Below are positions 3,061-9,845 of a stretch of DNA of 53,584 bases, in pieces. A program made the translations under genes and the position numbers. The notes beneath the pieces are model-generated. The model had not been told where the DNA came from and did not search any database. It worked only from the letters and a program-made list of their open reading frames with translations. Where the stretch lies: the UHGV virus genome UHGV-0183426; one strand, 5' to 3'. Positions within the stretch are counted from its first letter, which is position 1. Each line of letters starts with the position of its first letter. Origin of the DNA: a virus.

Positions 3061-3824
3061 TCAGTCCGGCAAAACGCGGTTGAGCGTAGTACGATTGATG
3101 GCCCGGTCGTTAGCTAGGAATACAGCACGGGCGAAGCCACGCGGCGTTAGTGAGCGGATCATCTTTGTTCGCTTTGATTTTCCGCCTAACTTCGCGTGCT
3201 GCTTACTGTCTTCCCATTCATCTGGCATCGGCACAGGACGGAATAGCGGCTGCTTAAATCCATTCCCGCACCAAATACAAGTTTTCTTCGTGTAGGCATC
3301 GCGGTCGGCAATGTATTCCGGGAAAGCAGGATGTTTGTCATCTTCAGGCAGGTAGCCACCGTAAACGCAAGGATTGAAGATAAAATCCGGTTTACGCCAT
3401 AACGTTGACAGTGCGCCAACTGGATTTTCCACCATCCACGGCACGTTATACATATTCGCCAGTTTTTCTACAATTTTTGCGTTATACGCCGCCTTTACCT
3501 GGAAGCCAGGATCTTTTTTCCGTTTATCAGCGAACCAACGAGCGCCTGATACGGCAAGATCATCACACGGAGGAAAGCCCAAGATAATGTCAGGATCTGG
3601 ATAAACAGACAATTCAGGGGAGAACATTACCAGGAAATGGCTGTCAATCCATACGTTAACATATTCAATATTTGGATGAATTATTTTTACCCCGTCATAA
3701 TCCCCGTGATTAGCGCCGTCATAGTTGAAGCAATAGCATTTATACCAGCTTCCGCCCAATCTTTAACGGCGTACCCGCTTCCGTCGTACAGCGACCAGAT
3801 AACCCAATTTCTAAGCCCGCTCAT
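3061..3824 (-). pseudogene. C5-cytosine DNA methyltransferase-like gene split between two frames
   Basis: Small ORF 3687..3824 encodes a motif-I-like N-terminus (VIWSLYDGSGYAVKDWAEAG); ORF 3061..3759 in another frame carries motif IV-like GFPPCDD, motif VI-like VENPVG and motif IX/X-like RSLTPRGFARAVF; no target-recognition domain. Confidence 0.5.
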
Positions 3825-4366
3825 TTTCTACCCTCAAACGTGAAATAGCGGCGCATGATGATAGTAATCACCGTTACCGCTGCCATTTTTGAGATGAATT
3901 GAATAGCTGATATTTCCGGCATAAATGCCATAAACGATAGCGTGGGAAAAATTAACGCATCGCCAATGGCGGACGCTATATTTGCAGGCCAGCGTTTGGA
4001 ATCGAAATCACCAGGTAGAACCCGGTAAACGCCGCCAGAAATAAGCGCACCGGAAACAACCGCGACGAATGACGCGATCGCCACCATTCCGGCGTCGTAA
4101 TTTATCAGCACCGTGATTGCGCCAGCGGCGGCGCATGTTGTAGCCGACCATTTCAGGCCGCCGTCATATAACAGAAGGTCACGGATCATCATATTGACAC
4201 ACACTGCGGCTACCGTGGTGATCGGAATCACCCACGGGCCGCAATGGTTAACAATAAGATTGATAATCACGAAAACGGCGACATAAACGCAGGCTAATAA
4301 CCTGTCAATTGTCACCCTTTCCATTTGGATCGTACCTCTTATCATGAATACATTCCGATCTGTCAA
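3821..4366 (-). CDS. integral membrane protein (speculatively YhhQ/VUT-like transporter)
   Basis: 181 aa, several hydrophobic segments; WPANIASAIGDALIFPTLSF loosely resembles a YhhQ motif; true start probably an internal Met near 4321. Confidence 0.45.
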   Translation of the reverse strand: MTDRNVFMIRGTIQMERVTIDRLLACVYVAVFVIINLIVNHCGPWVIPITTVAAVCVNMMIRDLLLYDGGLKWSATTCAAAGAITVLINYDAGMVAIASFVAVVSGALISGGVYRVLPGDFDSKRWPANIASAIGDALIFPTLSFMAFMPEISAIQFISKMAAVTVITIIMRRYFTFEGRK

Positions 4367-4817
4367 ACTTCAAATCAAGCCAATTAGCGACCTCACCGTT
4401 AAACTTCACAGTAGGAATTATTTTCCCAGGAATAATCGACTGGTCAGGCACTGAAATATCAGAGTAAAGTTTTATCCCTCCGCTGATAGGGAGATCAAAA
4501 ACAGCCTGTTTCTTTCTTTGTTCTTCCTCACGTTCCGTTAATATTTGCTCAGCTTTTAGCGCGTTATAGCTAATTAAATCAATTAGTGTGTCTGTCGGAT
4601 CGCTGTTATTGCTCAAAATGGCTTCTAAACGCGCCTCCTTGAGACAAATTAGCAGATCCCATACATCAAGCGGTGTTAAATTTGCTCCCTTCTTAGCGTT
4701 GTAAATAGTTGCTATTTTTGGCGCTGATTTTTCCTCTTTTTTGTCGTATCCGTTTTGCTTACCTCTTTGCTCTATGGTTTCTGCTGCAAGTCTTAATAAA
4801 TCTGCTGCCTTAGTCAT
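4305..4817 (-). CDS. hypothetical protein (170 aa)
   Basis: ORF track; between dam and membrane protein. Confidence 0.45.
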   Translation of the reverse strand: MTKAADLLRLAAETIEQRGKQNGYDKKEEKSAPKIATIYNAKKGANLTPLDVWDLLICLKEARLEAILSNNSDPTDTLIDLISYNALKAEQILTEREEEQRKKQAVFDLPISGGIKLYSDISVPDQSIIPGKIIPTVKFNGEVANWLDLKFDRSECIHDKRYDPNGKGDN

Positions 4818-5349
4818 TATTTTCGCCTCTCGCGTATAGCTCTTTACGTGTTATCTGCGTGAAAATACATTCATGTCTGCACCGTGGATGCCAGATCAAG
4901 AACAAGCTCCCTTTATTGTTTCCGCTTGCTGGCTTACCAGTAGCGGCATTAATAAATGCCAGCCTCCCGCGCGTTATTAATCGGCATTCGTTTGCCGTCT
5001 CCACGCCGTTCATAAACCAGCTAACAGAAATGTCAGCTGGCAATAACATTACGCATCCGATATGGTTTCTATGGTGTTCAAGCGCCGCCTTATCGACGAA
5101 TGGTCCAGGATTTGAATATGGTGGATTCATCCAGACATACTCACCAGGCATCGCCACCGCTCCCCACGGATAATGTAGCGTGTCCATTTCTTCTGTTATA
5201 TATCGCGGAACTAATGCGTTTTCCTTGTTTGCAGCCACATCCGCGACGAATTCGAATTCACGATCCATACCTCTAAAAACAGGTTTCGGCGTCTGCCATA
5301 GGTCTTTTATTTCTTTCGGCGTGTGGCTGCCGCCGTAATCATTTTTCAT
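4810..5349 (-). CDS. dam: phage-type DNA N6-adenine methyltransferase
   Basis: 179 aa; WQTP...EFVADVAA...WMNPPYS (NPPY catalytic motif) typical of small phage Dam. Confidence 0.8.
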   Translation of the reverse strand: MKNDYGGSHTPKEIKDLWQTPKPVFRGMDREFEFVADVAANKENALVPRYITEEMDTLHYPWGAVAMPGEYVWMNPPYSNPGPFVDKAALEHHRNHIGCVMLLPADISVSWFMNGVETANECRLITRGRLAFINAATGKPASGNNKGSLFLIWHPRCRHECIFTQITRKELYARGENND

Positions 5350-5358
5350 TACGCCCCC

Positions 5359-5592
5359 TTAGAAATAATCCTGATCAGTTCCCCATCGGTTGTTTAAATA
5401 CCCCACCAGCCAGACAAAACGTTCGATACTGATTAGCGGGGCGACCTTGCGATAATGCTTTTCTAATATCAGCCGCGTAGCTTTATCGCTGTAGCCGTTT
5501 TTCTCCACCTCCGCTTTGCAGGCAGAAAGCGCTGCGCGGGCGGCAGCTTTTACGGCGTTAAATTGCGGCTCTGACAGGTTAAATAAAGCCAT
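5359..5592 (-). CDS. hypothetical protein
   Basis: ORF track 5359..5649; start trimmed to internal Met to avoid overlap. Confidence 0.35.
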   Translation of the reverse strand: MALFNLSEPQFNAVKAAARAALSACKAEVEKNGYSDKATRLILEKHYRKVAPLISIERFVWLVGYLNNRWGTDQDYF

Positions 5593-5593
5593 T

Positions 5594-5836
5594 TCATAAA
5601 TAATCAGTAGAATCAGCGAAAAAGAACCCAACAAATACACTAACAGCAATAATGATCCTTAACATATAAAGCGCATCATCAGGTGATGGCATTTCTGGTA
5701 GTTCCCATGTAACAAAAGACACACCGCATAAAATTCCAATAAGAACCGTAGCTATGCATGAGAATACAAAAAAAGAACAAAATAGCCAGCCCATAATGAA
5801 GTCAATAAGTGCACGCATCATTCTAAACGTCCTCAA
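5594..5836 (-). CDS. hypothetical membrane protein (80 aa)
   Basis: two hydrophobic segments. Confidence 0.4.
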   Translation of the reverse strand: MRTFRMMRALIDFIMGWLFCSFFVFSCIATVLIGILCGVSFVTWELPEMPSPDDALYMLRIIIAVSVFVGFFFADSTDYL

Positions 5837-6026
5837 TCACACCGTCTGGCACGCGAAGTTTTATATCAAGTACATGATAATCACACATTTCCTGATAATG
5901 GTGATCCGGCCTGCTGCCGAAATACCATTTACCTTCCATATAAAAATAAACGCCGAAAACATTTCCGGGCGCTGCCTTTGTTGCTGATTCTGGAATCTTC
6001 CATTCCCTATAGTGTTTAAACTTCAT
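5823..6026 (-). CDS. hypothetical protein (67 aa)
   Basis: ORF track. Confidence 0.35.
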   Translation of the reverse strand: MKFKHYREWKIPESATKAAPGNVFGVYFYMEGKWYFGSRPDHHYQEMCDYHVLDIKLRVPDGVIEDV

Positions 6027-6207
6027 ACATTAACACCGCCTTTTTAAGTGCGCTCAATTCAAAGTGCATAAGACAAAAATGCTGTACACCACCAACAATA
6101 CTGACCTGATAAATATCACCAACGCAGTTATAGTAATAACAACCAAATTGACCGATTCCGGCTAATTTAGCGTTATCCGGTATCATGTATTCGCCAACCT
6201 TTTTCAT
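6016..6207 (-). CDS. hypothetical protein (63 aa)
   Basis: ORF track. Confidence 0.35.
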   Translation of the reverse strand: MKKVGEYMIPDNAKLAGIGQFGCYYYNCVGDIYQVSIVGGVQHFCLMHFELSALKKAVLMYEV

Positions 6208-6305
6208 AGATCACCTCATATGGTATTCAATAAACCACCTGATAAACAGGCATAAGGCAATAAAACCCCAGCAACAGCACATATAAAACAATGTATCGTC
6301 CATAA

Positions 6306-6584
6306 TTAAGCCTCAATAACACCGTAATCAAACGTCCCTAAATACCGTTCTATACTTACAACCTCAATACCATCAATGCACCGTTTCCACACAGACACCT
6401 GGCTTTCATTTTCTCTGAAGTGCATATTAGAAAGCACTTCATCGGCTGGATAGCCTTTCCCAGCGACGTAGGCATCGTGACCTACGCCACCTTCTACGCA
6501 ATAAAGCATCAATTCGCGTTCCATTTCGCTTCCTCCGCACCGTAAACCTTTTGATTTTGGCTTACAAAACGGATATGCGATCAC
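6306..6584 (-). CDS. hypothetical protein (92 aa)
   Basis: ORF track. Confidence 0.4.
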   Translation of the reverse strand: MIAYPFCKPKSKGLRCGGSEMERELMLYCVEGGVGHDAYVAGKGYPADEVLSNMHFRENESQVSVWKRCIDGIEVVSIERYLGTFDYGVIEA

Positions 6585-6622
6585 AATACATAATGTATAT
6601 TTATGTAATCGGAATCACTCGG

Positions 6623-7243
6623 TTAATGCAGTACACGTTTTTCCTGTTCAGGCATCGGCTGTGCGTTTTTCCGTGCATCATTAAGCACAGCGATAGCCGC
6701 CTGTACACCGAAATCATTTGCGCGCATATCATTGCCAACCATTTCACAGTAAAACAGCGGCATAAACGCTTTTACTTCTTCTTCTTTGTGGCCTTCCTCA
6801 ATGCATTTCTGCAACATCTTAACTTCAAAGATGTTTTTCATCAGGCCGCGCATAGAATGCAGTGAAACACTACCAAGCTGATCCTTGTTCAACGGGAAAA
6901 TAACAGCACTTCCGAACGCGAGCGGATCAACCTCTTCCGGCACTGGTACGCGTCCATATTCCTCTTCCATTTGTTTTACGAAAGTAAGGCAGAAGACATA
7001 ACGAACTACGGCAGTTTTTTCTTCAGCATTTAAAGACATATAATCGCGGATCGACGCATCCATCACAATATCAACAATCTGTAACGCCAGATTCAAATCA
7101 GCGTCATACTTGCCAGCTTCCATATCTTTCAATACTTCGTGATAATCTTTAATTTCAACTTCATGAAAACTTGCGTCTTCAGTGTAGCGAGTGATTAACA
7201 TGCCTTCGCTGCCGAGTGAATAAGCCGTTTTGATGTCTTTCAT
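6623..7243 (-). CDS. hypothetical protein (206 aa)
   Basis: ORF track; largest unknown early-left gene. Confidence 0.45.
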   Translation of the reverse strand: MKDIKTAYSLGSEGMLITRYTEDASFHEVEIKDYHEVLKDMEAGKYDADLNLALQIVDIVMDASIRDYMSLNAEEKTAVVRYVFCLTFVKQMEEEYGRVPVPEEVDPLAFGSAVIFPLNKDQLGSVSLHSMRGLMKNIFEVKMLQKCIEEGHKEEEVKAFMPLFYCEMVGNDMRANDFGVQAAIAVLNDARKNAQPMPEQEKRVLH

Positions 7244-7256
7244 GATATTTATCCTT

Positions 7257-7589
7257 TTATAGTGGGTGATGCCATTTCATTTCAGTTTCTGAATTAAACG
7301 GGTTTCCTTCGCTTGAAAGGAATAAATCACGCTCCCGTTTCAGTTCTTCCGGGCTTATTTCTATTTCATCAATCTGACCGAACGATCCCGGCATCATTCG
7401 TTTTAAATCAGATAGCGGACGCATAAGGCCGCAGCCGCGTAACAGCATATCAACCGCGAATTGTCTGCGTCCGCCAGCGTCATTGAAGCGCCGCGCCCAG
7501 GGCACAACCACGATCCGGCGTTCGAATTCGATAAATAGTGATAGCTTGTTTGTTTCGCTATCATATGCTTTATGGAATTTAATTTTCAT
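7257..7589 (-). CDS. hypothetical protein (110 aa)
   Basis: ORF track. Confidence 0.45.
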   Translation of the reverse strand: MKIKFHKAYDSETNKLSLFIEFERRIVVVPWARRFNDAGGRRQFAVDMLLRGCGLMRPLSDLKRMMPGSFGQIDEIEISPEELKRERDLFLSSEGNPFNSETEMKWHHPL

Positions 7590-7770
7590 TTAACACCTCG
7601 ACGTATTGCTCAAGATGCCATTTACCAACTTCATCCATGTTTTCGTCGTATATAATGACCTCTCCGCCTTGCCTGAATCTGAAAGCAGTAGCTGTAAATT
7701 CACGGCCCCACCACGCCTTTAAGCGCTCCCCACCTTTCAGGTGTTTAACCTTTACTTCTTTTATAGCCAT
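7579..7770 (-). CDS. hypothetical protein (63 aa)
   Basis: ORF track. Confidence 0.4.
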   Translation of the reverse strand: MAIKEVKVKHLKGGERLKAWWGREFTATAFRFRQGGEVIIYDENMDEVGKWHLEQYVEVLNEN

Positions 7771-8030
7771 ACGCCGAACATCCCATTCAGCCCGGCGAAC
7801 AATTTCCGCCAGTGGTTTTCAGCATAAGCCCGGAACGGCTTAACGCGAACATTTCGGGCCTTCAGTTCAATATTGTCAAAGAAACGCGGCTCTATTATTG
7901 TTCCGTCAAGATATTTAACCAGTAACGGGCGCTGATCGTAGCTCCCCTTATTCAGCACAACCAAGCCAGGGTCATCACGATATTCAGGCAATACGACAAG
8001 ATCACCAGCCTTTGCATCCCACGTTTTCAT
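7761..8030 (-). CDS. hypothetical protein (89 aa)
   Basis: ORF track. Confidence 0.45.
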   Translation of the reverse strand: MKTWDAKAGDLVVLPEYRDDPGLVVLNKGSYDQRPLLVKYLDGTIIEPRFFDNIELKARNVRVKPFRAYAENHWRKLFAGLNGMFGVWL

Positions 8031-8266
8031 TACATCAACCCTCTGAAAATAAAGCTAACAAGCGCAGCAAATGCGCCACAAAACACAACAACAAAAAGGA
8101 AGAAAATAATGCAAAACGCGACCGTCACAATGTCCTTACCGACTTTCATGATTGGCCTCACATGTTAGTAATGAGTTTAATGATCGCTACCGTGATATAA
8201 AGCGACACGCTGAGATACAGCACGCGATAGATAAAGCCGCAAGCAATGCGGCAATTTTTGCAAGAT

Positions 8267-8491
8267 TCATTTGCCACCCTCCGCAATGAACTTATCAAGC
8301 CATTTGTTATTAGCCAGCCGTTCTGCATCTTCGCCGAATGCTTTGCGGTCACTTAATTCCTGGCGAGTAGGGAAAGGCCATTTATCGTGCCACCCCGCAG
8401 ACGTTTCGAACTCGTACAGCCTGCCGCCGAAAGTGATAAGCTCATCAGCGCCGTCAGGAATTTCTCCGTCAACTTCTTTATCTTCGATCAT
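8267..8491 (-). CDS. hypothetical protein (74 aa)
   Basis: ORF track. Confidence 0.4.
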   Translation of the reverse strand: MIEDKEVDGEIPDGADELITFGGRLYEFETSAGWHDKWPFPTRQELSDRKAFGEDAERLANNKWLDKFIAEGGK

Positions 8492-8505
8492 GATTTAATA
8501 CCTCA

Positions 8506-8784
8506 TTAATCGTTAATAACCCGGCCCATACGCCCGCGATATTTGCGCATACGTGGATCGACATATTCAGGCCAGTGCATATCCGGTTTTCTTTGCAGCG
8601 GATAAAAACTTGCCTGCCAGTTGTCGAGCCATATTTGTTTTGCGTACAGGTCACTAAATCTTTTTGCCATCCGTTCCGCTGCCGTTCCGCATAAAAAAAG
8701 CCCATGATCGATTTGATCACGGGCTTCTCTTAGAACTTGCTCTTTTGTTCGCGGTGGCGGTGGCGGTTTTAAATAATCACCCAC
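8506..8784 (-). CDS. hypothetical protein (92 aa)
   Basis: ORF track. Confidence 0.4.
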   Translation of the reverse strand: MGDYLKPPPPPRTKEQVLREARDQIDHGLFLCGTAAERMAKRFSDLYAKQIWLDNWQASFYPLQRKPDMHWPEYVDPRMRKYRGRMGRVIND

Positions 8785-8799
8785 AGCTAACCTATTGAT

Positions 8800-9204
8800 T
8801 TAAAACGGGATGTCGTCATCGAAGTCAGGAGGAACATTATTCCCGTTATTATTCTGCTGCTGCGGCGGCGCTTTCTGCTGCTGGCCTTGCTGGTTAACAG
8901 CCATGAACTCAAACTCATTGACCGCCACTTCTACCGCAGTTCCCTTCGTGCCGTCGTTCCGGTCATATTGCCGAACATCCAGGCGACCGCTTACCACTAT
9001 TTTTCCACCCTTGCGGATATGTGGCGCTAATTTTTCCGCACGCTCACCAAATACCAGGCAAGTGACCCACATTGTCCGCTTATTATCGCCGTAGCCATTC
9101 GTTACAGCTAACGGAAAACTACCAATCGCTTTCCCGTTTTGTGTGTAGCGAACCTCCATATCATTACCGATATTCCCGCCCAGCGTGATTGAATTTAAAC
9201 TCAT
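8800..9204 (-). CDS. ssb: single-stranded DNA-binding protein
   Basis: 134 aa; OB-fold-like N-terminus, Gln/Pro-rich linker, acidic C-terminal tail DFDDDIPF. Confidence 0.9.
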   Translation of the reverse strand: MSLNSITLGGNIGNDMEVRYTQNGKAIGSFPLAVTNGYGDNKRTMWVTCLVFGERAEKLAPHIRKGGKIVVSGRLDVRQYDRNDGTKGTAVEVAVNEFEFMAVNQQGQQQKAPPQQQNNNGNNVPPDFDDDIPF

Positions 9205-9845
9205 TAACCCATCTCCCCGTTAAGCTCTGCTACCCGGATGTCATAAACATCTTTTGCCTTGATTCGATGCTCCGATCCTTCCGGTAGTAATTTCCAGCAT
9301 TTGCCAAATATTTCACGCAGCTTGTTAGCGTCCTGCGCTTTCGCTGCTGCATCACAGAAACGTGCTAATACTTCATCAGGATTTGGCGGCGCTTTCTTCT
9401 GCTGCGGTTGTTGTTTTGGTGGGTTTTTCTGTTGTCGCGGCTGCTGGCCTGTCTGCTTCGCGTAAGCGTCGCTATCCAGATCTTTTGCGTCGTCGATACA
9501 GAACAAGCCGTTTAAACAATATTTGCGAGCATAAGAAGAAGTCGCGCCAGTTAACTGACCAGACGACATGCCTTTTTGTTCTTTTTCCTCGCGGGCGAAA
9601 GCAGTAGCCGTTATTTCATCTTCACCATCGCTCAATATCGCTGTTGCTTTAATGTAATAACGATCACCAATTAACACCACTTCATCATTAAGCGTTAACG
9701 TAATGCCTTCCAATAAAGGCTTAACAGCCTCTAAAATATCCTCCGCCGATCTGTAATTATATCCACCGTATGAATTGCGCTGAGATTTTGGCGCTTTTAA
9801 TTGTTGCTGAATTAGCCACAATTTTTTGTATAAATCTTTCTTCAC
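9204..9845 (-). CDS. erf: ERF-family single-strand annealing recombinase
   Basis: 213 aa; N-terminal region (YRSAEDILEAVKPLL...IGDRYYIKATA...TGATSSYARKYCLNGLF) matches P22 Erf as recalled. Confidence 0.75.
   Translation of the reverse strand: MKKDLYKKLWLIQQQLKAPKSQRNSYGGYNYRSAEDILEAVKPLLEGITLTLNDEVVLIGDRYYIKATAILSDGEDEITATAFAREEKEQKGMSSGQLTGATSSYARKYCLNGLFCIDDAKDLDSDAYAKQTGQQPRQQKNPPKQQPQQKKAPPNPDEVLARFCDAAAKAQDANKLREIFGKCWKLLPEGSEHRIKAKDVYDIRVAELNGEMG

Follow-up and report, generated by a model that had tools for sequence, protein, structure and literature searches.

The block at positions 5359 to 8784 of the virus genome UHGV-0183426 (the window, meaning here the whole 53,584-nucleotide [nt] stretch analyzed) carries at least 13 small minus-strand genes between ssb and dam. 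We read this block, with a probability of roughly 0.6, as the recombination-accessory and delayed-early host-modulation segment of the early operon of an mEpimmI-type temperate coliphage. The reading draws on a conserved gene inventory, on homology that assigns the first gene (A) to the Abc2 family and the last (L) to Ipe, and on a terminator-like hairpin directly after the second gene (B).

Across this 3.4-kb region, the window has 86 to 90% DNA identity to seven sequenced mEpimmI phages (mEp010, mEp013, mEp021, mEp044, mEp515, mEp554, and MagusPhagus), and prophages with a matching region occur in 35 of 5426 complete Escherichia coli genomes (about 0.6%) at 85 to 93% DNA identity. Phages of this group are also common in human gut metagenomes, and an IMG/VR contig (L005) is near-identical to the window. 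The window therefore belongs with the mEpimmI (mEp021-like) phages, which were published in 2025 as "Nus-dependent non-lambdoid" temperate coliphages (PMC11893012), and the region is the counterpart of mEp021 gp21 to gp29 (MH706966). The original prediction, which was made from the letters of the window, had drawn its comparison with lambdoid phages, a term that does not fit the mEpimmI group in the strict sense (PMC11893012).

Gene content and conservation of the block

The 11 open reading frames (ORFs) predicted between ssb and dam (A, B, D, E, F, G, H, I, J, K, and L) were all recovered on the minus strand at the predicted coordinates, and the same 11 genes are called by the NCBI pipeline in two near-identical E. 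coli prophages. The count itself was too low, as two conserved membrane-peptide genes, C and h2, had been overlooked. The block is listed in the order of transcription, followed by its flanking context, with lengths in amino acids (aa) and, where given, the ratio of nonsynonymous to synonymous polymorphism (pN/pS).

8506 to 8784, minus strand: A, 92 aa, assigned as a divergent Abc2-family (anti-RecBCD 2) protein; GTG start here, ATG in most relatives; pN/pS 0.24
8267 to 8491, minus strand: B, 74 aa, acidic (isoelectric point [pI] 4.5); phrog_28542 and a weak phrog_4684 match
8030 to 8149, minus strand: C, 39-aa hydrophobic single-helix peptide; GAGG 8 nt upstream of its ATG; stop overlaps the D start (TAATG)
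7761 to 8030, minus strand: D, 89 aa, basic; phrog_28396 only; one allele type
7579 to 7770, minus strand: E, 63 aa; overlaps D by 10 nt and F by 11 nt; phrog_34199; pN/pS 0.27
7257 to 7589, minus strand: F, 110 aa; phrog_34371; pN/pS 0.10; one allele type
6623 to 7243, minus strand: G, 206 aa, acidic, narrow family
6306 to 6524, minus strand: H, 72 aa, acidic; starts at the ATG after GGAGGA, not at the upstream GTG; pN/pS 0.10
6211 to 6303, minus strand: h2, 30-aa Cys-rich hydrophobic membrane peptide between H and I; annotated in MagusPhagus
6016 to 6207, minus strand: I, 63 aa; weak phrog_37004 match; among the most polymorphic positions
5823 to 6026, minus strand: J, 67 aa; phrog_36823; pN/pS 0.36
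5594 to 5821, minus strand: K, 75-aa membrane protein with two hydrophobic segments; phrog_14059; polymorphic
5359 to 5592, minus strand: L, 77 aa; last gene before dam; phrog_303; pN/pS 0.06, the most constrained in the block
9204 to 9845, minus strand: erf, phrog_155; recombination module, context
8800 to 9204, minus strand: ssb, phrog_44; upstream flank
4810 to 5349, minus strand: dam; downstream flank

The comparison set for the window proteins was 28 related loci at first and 54 later. Across 27 to 28 relatives the lengths and start codons of the ORFs were kept, and pN/pS in the block ranged from 0.06 to 0.36, compared with 0.07 for dam and 0.23 for ssb. Each gene was present in 42 or 43 of the 43 loci that span ssb through dam (the window and 42 relatives), always in colinear order, with an ssb-to-dam distance of 3855 to 4406 nt. 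A family search with the alternative-frame and plus-strand ORFs of the block returned no matches, and those ORFs were rejected as genes. Because lengths and starts are kept, pN/pS is low, order is colinear, and ORFs in other frames lack family matches, the 11 ORFs are genuine genes and not chance ORFs.

Gene junctions overlap or lie 1 to 14 nt apart, except for gaps of 117 nt after B and 98 nt between G and H that split the block into three sub-blocks. The tight coupling originally described therefore holds inside each sub-block but not across the 117-nt gap, which contains the terminator hairpin, or the structured 98-nt gap. A repeat search in the block returned only short, imperfect two-copy matches, and known RNA families were absent from the Rfam matches across the whole window.

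The block had also been described as lacking any recognizable motif. This no longer holds for A (Abc2 family), L (Ipe ortholog, phrog_303), and J (DUF7274), and it holds in part for B, which has a DUF2737-like C terminus.

Genes A and B and the recombination module

Gene A matched phrog_656 ("abc2 anti-RecBCD") at 1.8e-30 over residues 3 to 92 of 92. By tblastn, annotated Abc2/DUF2856 proteins from P22-like and Stx phages were 35 to 39% identical to A across 84 to 97% of its length (5e-9 to 3e-6). Full-length alignment with the Abc2 proteins of JEP4, HK542, and VSe13, which themselves match the P22 Abc2 chain 8b1t_A at 8.5e-43, revealed an invariant C-terminal PEY.DPR.R.YR.R.G..ND motif. Pro62 of A is also invariant in this alignment and falls opposite Pro68 of P22 Abc2, which occupies the active site of PpiB (PMC9836394). 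There was no Pfam match at E ≤ 0.1 (DUF2856 went undetected), and a single-sequence phmmer search of PDB did not recover 8b1t at E ≤ 1. These two negatives mark A as divergent, and on the strength of its sequence A is assigned as a divergent member of the Abc2 anti-RecBCD family. Abc was among the functions that the original prediction had named for comparison.

The C-terminal ~35 aa of B have 38 to 40% identity to the DUF2737 proteins encoded directly after abc2 in JEP4, HK542, and VSe13, a gene order that occurs in P22-like and HK97-like phages. B had no Pfam match at E ≤ 0.1, and the DUF2737 name is attached to one RefSeq ortholog and to one metagenome-assembled genome copy (an identical protein). 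The window order erf, ssb, A compares with erf, abc1 or a gp40-like gene, and abc2 in HK542, JEP4, and VSe13. Given this homology and synteny, A and B appear to form the tail of a P22-style Erf-SSB-Abc2 recombination module. The block follows erf and ssb, in keeping with the original placement after the recombination genes, and A, and probably B, belong to the erf-ssb module.

Operon layout and antitermination signals

The signals that bear on expression of the block are as follows.

10437 to 10727, minus strand: N-like antiterminator gene (Gp17 ortholog) at the head of the operon; phrog_271, 1.3e-13
about 10785 to 10821, minus strand: nutR1-like site, a sequence-level match with boxA CGCTCATTAA and boxB GCCGC-TGGAAGT-GCGGC
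8236 to 8252, minus strand: t2-like intrinsic-terminator hairpin directly after B, found by pattern scan; GCCGCATTGCTTGCGGC followed by TTTATCT
6525 to 6622, minus strand: noncoding G/H gap, 98 nt, with two predicted RNA hairpins

The N-like protein has Arg at positions 17, 19, 20, 21, and 24, matching published Gp17, whose Arg positions and function were reported for the mEpimmI group; the position of nutR1 is consistent with the same report (PMC11893012). A nutR2-like sequence, TGCTCTTTAA, lies at 2963 (again a sequence-level match). The t2-like hairpin occupies the position of TERM_2 in the mEp021 record, and t2 of mEp021 is among the terminators shown experimentally (PMC11893012). The proposal of N-type antitermination control is supported by an N-like gene with its Arg motif, a nutR1-like boxA/boxB, and an internal t2-like terminator. 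Because the t2-like hairpin follows B, genes C to L should be delayed early and dependent on antitermination. The best promoter-like site in a scan was at 11076 to 11104; promoter-like sites overall were not above the chance rate (18 found, 21.5 expected).

The description of the unit as an early-left operon did not survive. In mEp021 the unit extends past dam through a DUF6378 gene, a membrane protein gene, dcm, nutR2, ninF, ninG, a resolvase gene, and Q. The repressor gene, located upstream, is on the same strand, and the authors who described the group name the nut sites of the unit R1 and R2, not "L" (PMC11893012). A left operon would end at int/xis, apart from the replication, nin, and Q genes. 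Since this unit continues to the nin genes and Q, and the authors use "R," "early-left" applies by analogy only.

Two smaller features were noted along the operon. A candidate 27-aa hydrophobic, Cys-rich ORF (MNLAKIAALLAALSIACCISACRFISR; 8187 to 8270, minus strand) overlaps the B stop by ATGA and spans the t2 hairpin. The ORF at this position is 37 aa long in 14 relatives, and MagusPhagus annotates small ORFs there. The counterpart of mEp021 t3 (5953 to 5968, minus strand; L001, 6605 to 6625) lies inside the coding sequence of J, a gene kept in 42 of 43 loci; a real intergenic terminator at t3 is improbable.

The G/H gap is as conserved as the surrounding coding sequence (39 to 40 distinct relatives), is unique within the window, and has a minimum free energy z-score of −2.8. 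Its second hairpin (6540 to 6567) has an A-rich loop (AAAATCAAAA), and the 3' arm abuts the ribosome-binding site of H. Nearly all stem changes in a set of 39 distinct sequences are wobble compatible, and double compensatory changes are absent. The A-rich-loop hairpin was considered as an extra nut site and rejected, as it has no boxA and a different loop, and a sigma-70 promoter in the gap was unsupported by the promoter scan. The element may control H translation or be an RNA-processing site.

Gene L and the Ipe family

Gene L is 96% identical to mEp021 gp29 (ipe), with the same length and position, and by this match is an ortholog of Ipe (inducer of pleiotropic effects). The 77-aa form corresponds to the active ORF-4.3 (PMC6379469). 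Overproduction of Ipe is reported to lead to hemolysis via HlyE-containing vesicles, altered morphology, and death (Martinez-Penafiel 2012, cited in PMC11893012 and PMC6379469), and the hemolytic phenotype was first seen in an mEp021 lysogen (PMC11893012).

Homologs of Ipe at 34 to 48% identity occur in about 290 phages, mostly virulent, T1-like Drexlerviridae. A word-indexed search with Ipe alone recovered close copies only, and a search with the family alignment recovered 103 proteins. The distribution in mostly virulent phages favors a role in the lytic cycle and disfavors lysogenic conversion. In T1-like phages the homolog lies among small early genes upstream of the terminase genes (e.g., L029, 3001 to 3231; L030, 3001 to 3228; and L034 to L036), and with this location Ipe-dam was rejected as a linked module. 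In L029 and L030, the two T1-like phages whose upstream ORF was translated, a coupled soluble 42-aa protein precedes the Ipe homolog.

The AlphaFold model of Ipe (predicted local distance difference test score, 88.7) has three main helices and a structural relative in Xanthomonas phage DIBBI (BFVD template modeling score, 0.74 to 0.79). In E. coli K-12, hlyE is repressed by H-NS (PMC2156107). Because of this repression, we infer that Ipe might act by relieving H-NS-type silencing. Among the matches listed for the Ipe model, there was no resemblance to known H-NS antagonists.

Genes C to K

The remaining genes encode small proteins that are largely specific to the mEpimmI group. C, D, E, F, G, H, h2, I, and K matched only function-less PHROGs or nothing, with no NCBIfam or PADLOC matches. 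When block proteins were scanned against Pfam, NCBIfam, and PADLOC, the sole match was DUF7274 (PF23939) in J, which scored 36 bits (cutoff, 24.5) and aligned residues 2 to 37 with positions 9 to 44 of the 75-position model. The defense models of PADLOC-DB 2.0 gave zero matches for B, C, D, E, F, G, H, I, K, and L. Sequence or profile searches of PDB with D, F, G, H, I, and the Ipe family returned nothing significant, including profile searches with F, H, and I that gave no match. Structure prediction with fold search, suggested along with the original prediction, was carried through for two models, one of them Ipe, and yielded no functional fold match.

Three of the genes encode membrane peptides. 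C is present in all relatives at 38 to 40 aa, with a pN/pS of 0.24 and a maximum 19-residue hydropathy of 3.05, and one source names its product "putative membrane protein." h2 is 30 aa long with an ATG start in 28 of 28 relatives (pN/pS, 0.18). K occurs as two major allele types that share the same architecture and a TW(S/E)LP(E/D) loop motif, the other allele having 28 to 36% identity to that of the window by tblastn. A 96-aa natural fusion of h2 with I (P0346) is present on 4 public contigs; it hints that h2 and I act together or may be a sequencing or stop-loss artifact.

F, G, and H show signs of being inherited together. The profile of F found nothing in species-representative genomes, and a metagenome scan with it returned mEpimmI copies only. 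The family of G comprises 5 clusters among 1.84 billion cluster representatives, with one remote relative. The phrog_28996 match of H covers residues 21 to 92 of the long ORF. Outside the mEpimmI group, the only relative of F, G, and H found was L037, a 1.8-kb metagenomic contig (ENA ERZ27253218, contig k141_50865), on which homologs with 55%, 28%, and 33% identity follow one another in the same order at 282 to 1581. With the order kept on so remote a contig, F, G, and H behave as a co-inherited trio.

Two database labels in this part of the block appear to have been propagated. RefSeq names the other K allele "cell division protein FtsK" with no backing model. D orthologs are named "toxin-antitoxin system toxin subunit," and no Pfam, NCBIfam, or PADLOC model stands behind the name; D itself had no match in Pfam (E ≤ 0.1), NCBIfam (E ≤ 0.01), PADLOC (E ≤ 0.01), or PDB sequences (E ≤ 5), and by tblastn was found only in mEpimmI phages.

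Allele variation among relatives

Comparison with related phages had been proposed as a way to find presence/absence variation. Gene content was instead fixed in 42 or 43 of 43 loci, and the positions that vary (I, K, C, E, and B) do so by mosaic replacement of alleles rather than by presence/absence turnover. The alleles of I fall into at least 3 major types, as low as 36% identical, that have the motifs PDN.KL and G.IY...GVQH in common. K has 2 major types and C has 3; E has 2, with a conserved C terminus, and B has 2, differing in the N terminus. A, D, F, and L each have a single allele type. Selection within allele classes is purifying, and allele replacement combined with such selection fits proteins that contact variable host partners.

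Proposed role of the segment and alternatives

In the reading we prefer, transcription would start at the early promoter near 11076 to 11104 and cross nutR1, where the N-like Gp17 and host Nus factors would make RNA polymerase resistant to termination. The Abc2-type A and DUF2737-like B would complete a P22-style recombination module of Erf, SSB, and Abc2. If A acts as other Abc2 proteins do, it would bind RecC and reprogram RecBCD to serve the phage recombinase rather than destroy phage DNA. The t2 terminator after A and B would make the remaining 11 genes (C to L) delayed early, expressed only after antitermination. The products would be small group-specific proteins, including the three membrane peptides C, h2, and K. 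From their position and size, C to K would most likely serve host takeover during lytic growth, by stoichiometric binding of host proteins or by insertion into the inner membrane.

Several points weigh against this reading. The reality and conservation of the genes, the family membership of A and L, and the anatomy of the operon were observed here, but the function of Gp17, the t2 terminator, and the Ipe phenotype are taken from the literature and would have to carry over to this phage by analogy. The takeover role and binding mode of C to K are plausible; by sequence (Pfam, PHROGs, NCBIfam, and PADLOC), no C-to-K protein resembles a known host-takeover or anti-defense protein, and the two structure models share that lack of a functional match. 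Gene content is invariant across the 43 loci, and known counter-defense loci usually vary by presence/absence. The first sighting of the Ipe phenotype in a lysogen makes some expression without full induction possible.

The strongest alternative is that the block is an anti-defense island in which several of the uncharacterized genes inhibit host restriction, nuclease, or abortive-infection systems, in the manner of Gam, Ral, and Ocr. The block follows recombination genes within an early operon under antitermination, A is assigned to a family of RecBCD modulators, and two DNA methyltransferase genes lie directly downstream, all of which suits this idea. B, G, and H are acidic (pI 4.5 to 4.8), as are DNA-mimic inhibitors, and an arms race could account for the discrete allele classes seen at I, K, C, and E. 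On the other side, no named anti-defense family other than Abc2 was matched, there was no structural match to known inhibitors, and gene content does not vary by presence/absence, being identical in 42 or 43 of 43 loci. Strong purifying selection on D, F, H, and L, each with a single allele type or nearly so, looks more like fixed phage physiology than a rapidly changing counter-defense. We regard an anti-defense island as possible but doubtful. With similar caution, we put forward the tentative idea that at least one protein encoded beyond t2 is an undescribed kind of inhibitor of host defense or of a nucleoid-silencing factor, with the F-G-H trio and the Ipe family as the top candidates.

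It is considerably less probable that some of the genes, above all C, h2, K, and Ipe, are expressed from the prophage and protect or alter the lysogen, as morons, superinfection exclusion factors, or defense genes. The literature attributes hemolysis by the mEp021 lysogen to Ipe, small membrane proteins are typical of exclusion factors, and K, C, and I are the most polymorphic positions. Yet there were no PADLOC defense-model matches, and no gene is framed by the promoter and terminator of a moron, the junctions being overlaps or 1 to 14 nt. The genes lie downstream of t2 in a lytic operon, and Ipe homologs occur in strictly virulent T1-like phages. In addition, experiments reported in PMC11893012 assigned exclusion by mEpimmI phages to Lpp lipoproteins encoded elsewhere.

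A toxin-antitoxin or abortive-infection module formed by D with the coupled C or with E is very improbable: RefSeq and mEp021 product names for D point to one, C, D, and E are translationally coupled, and C is small and hydrophobic like type I toxins, but toxin and antitoxin models of Pfam, NCBIfam, and PADLOC gave no match for any of the three, D is without a PDB sequence relative and is confined to mEpimmI phages under what appears to be an unsupported propagated name, and the scan found no separate promoter.

Other genes of the operon

An HNH endonuclease gene (9757 to 10287, minus strand; phrog_3377, 1.7e-48) separates the N-like gene from erf, whose start it overlaps by 89 nt. Of the 54 related loci, only L003 and L005 have this gene at full length; at its position mEp021 and MagusPhagus carry a tiny ORF of about 40 aa. 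The gene looks like a homing-endonuclease insertion.

Downstream of dam, a 181-aa multipass membrane protein (3821 to 4366, minus strand) is encoded between the DUF6378 gene and dcm. It has weak, nearly full-length Pfam similarity to Vut_1, a putative vitamin uptake transporter family (E = 0.22; residues 27 to 171 against model positions 6 to 149 of 152), and this transporter-like protein sits between two DNA methyltransferase genes.

Significance

The block is real but ordinary for the early operon of a temperate phage, it belongs to a phage group already published, and it has so far given no sign of a new defense or anti-defense family. What the mEpimmI early operon does retain is a fixed set of about 11 uncharacterized small proteins under strong purifying selection. 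If any of them blocks a host defense or housekeeping hub, the catalogue of phage countermeasures would grow, and results with Ipe would extend to T1-like phages. New here are a corrected inventory with two extra genes, the assignment of A and L to Abc2 and Ipe, and the finding that the "toxin" and "FtsK" labels are unsupported. The targets for experiment come down to Ipe, the F-G-H trio, and the three membrane peptides.

Comparison with known systems

The early block of T1-like phages shares with the window an Ipe-family protein of the same length, with the motif FVW.GY..GR.G, set within coupled small ORFs. Drexlerviridae are virulent, lack N/nut control, and have different neighbors around this gene, and the other 12 genes of the block were not found in the T1-like block.

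The PL operon of P22 and P22-like phages (erf, abc1, abc2, DUF2737, and ea genes) is a parallel in organization. In both, an Erf-type recombinase is followed by Abc2 and then by a small protein, which is DUF2737 in P22-like phages and has a DUF2737-like C terminus in the window, control is by an N-type antiterminator, and a string of small ea-like ORFs comes afterwards. A retains the Abc2 C-terminal motif and the PpiB-site proline (Abc2 structure, PDB 8B1T), although it is only 33 to 36% identical to P22-type Abc2. The window differs in having an SSB gene in place of abc1, in having no named kil, ral, arf, or gam homolog, and in downstream small genes unrelated to the ea genes of P22. Its operon runs into methylases, nin genes, and Q, whereas the P22-like operon ends at int/xis.

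The counterpart in mEp021 is gp21 to gp29. The window alleles differ from it at I (42% identity) and K (28%), the window has the HNH endonuclease gene where mEp021 has the tiny gp18, and the abc2-ssb spacer is shorter in the window. J, C, and h2 are not annotated in the mEp021 record, whose predicted terminator t3 falls within the J gene. The two otherwise have a common gene order with orthologs at 72 to 96% protein identity for most genes, the same flanks (erf-ssb upstream and dam downstream), the same t2 position, and the same layout of N-like Gp17 and nut sites.

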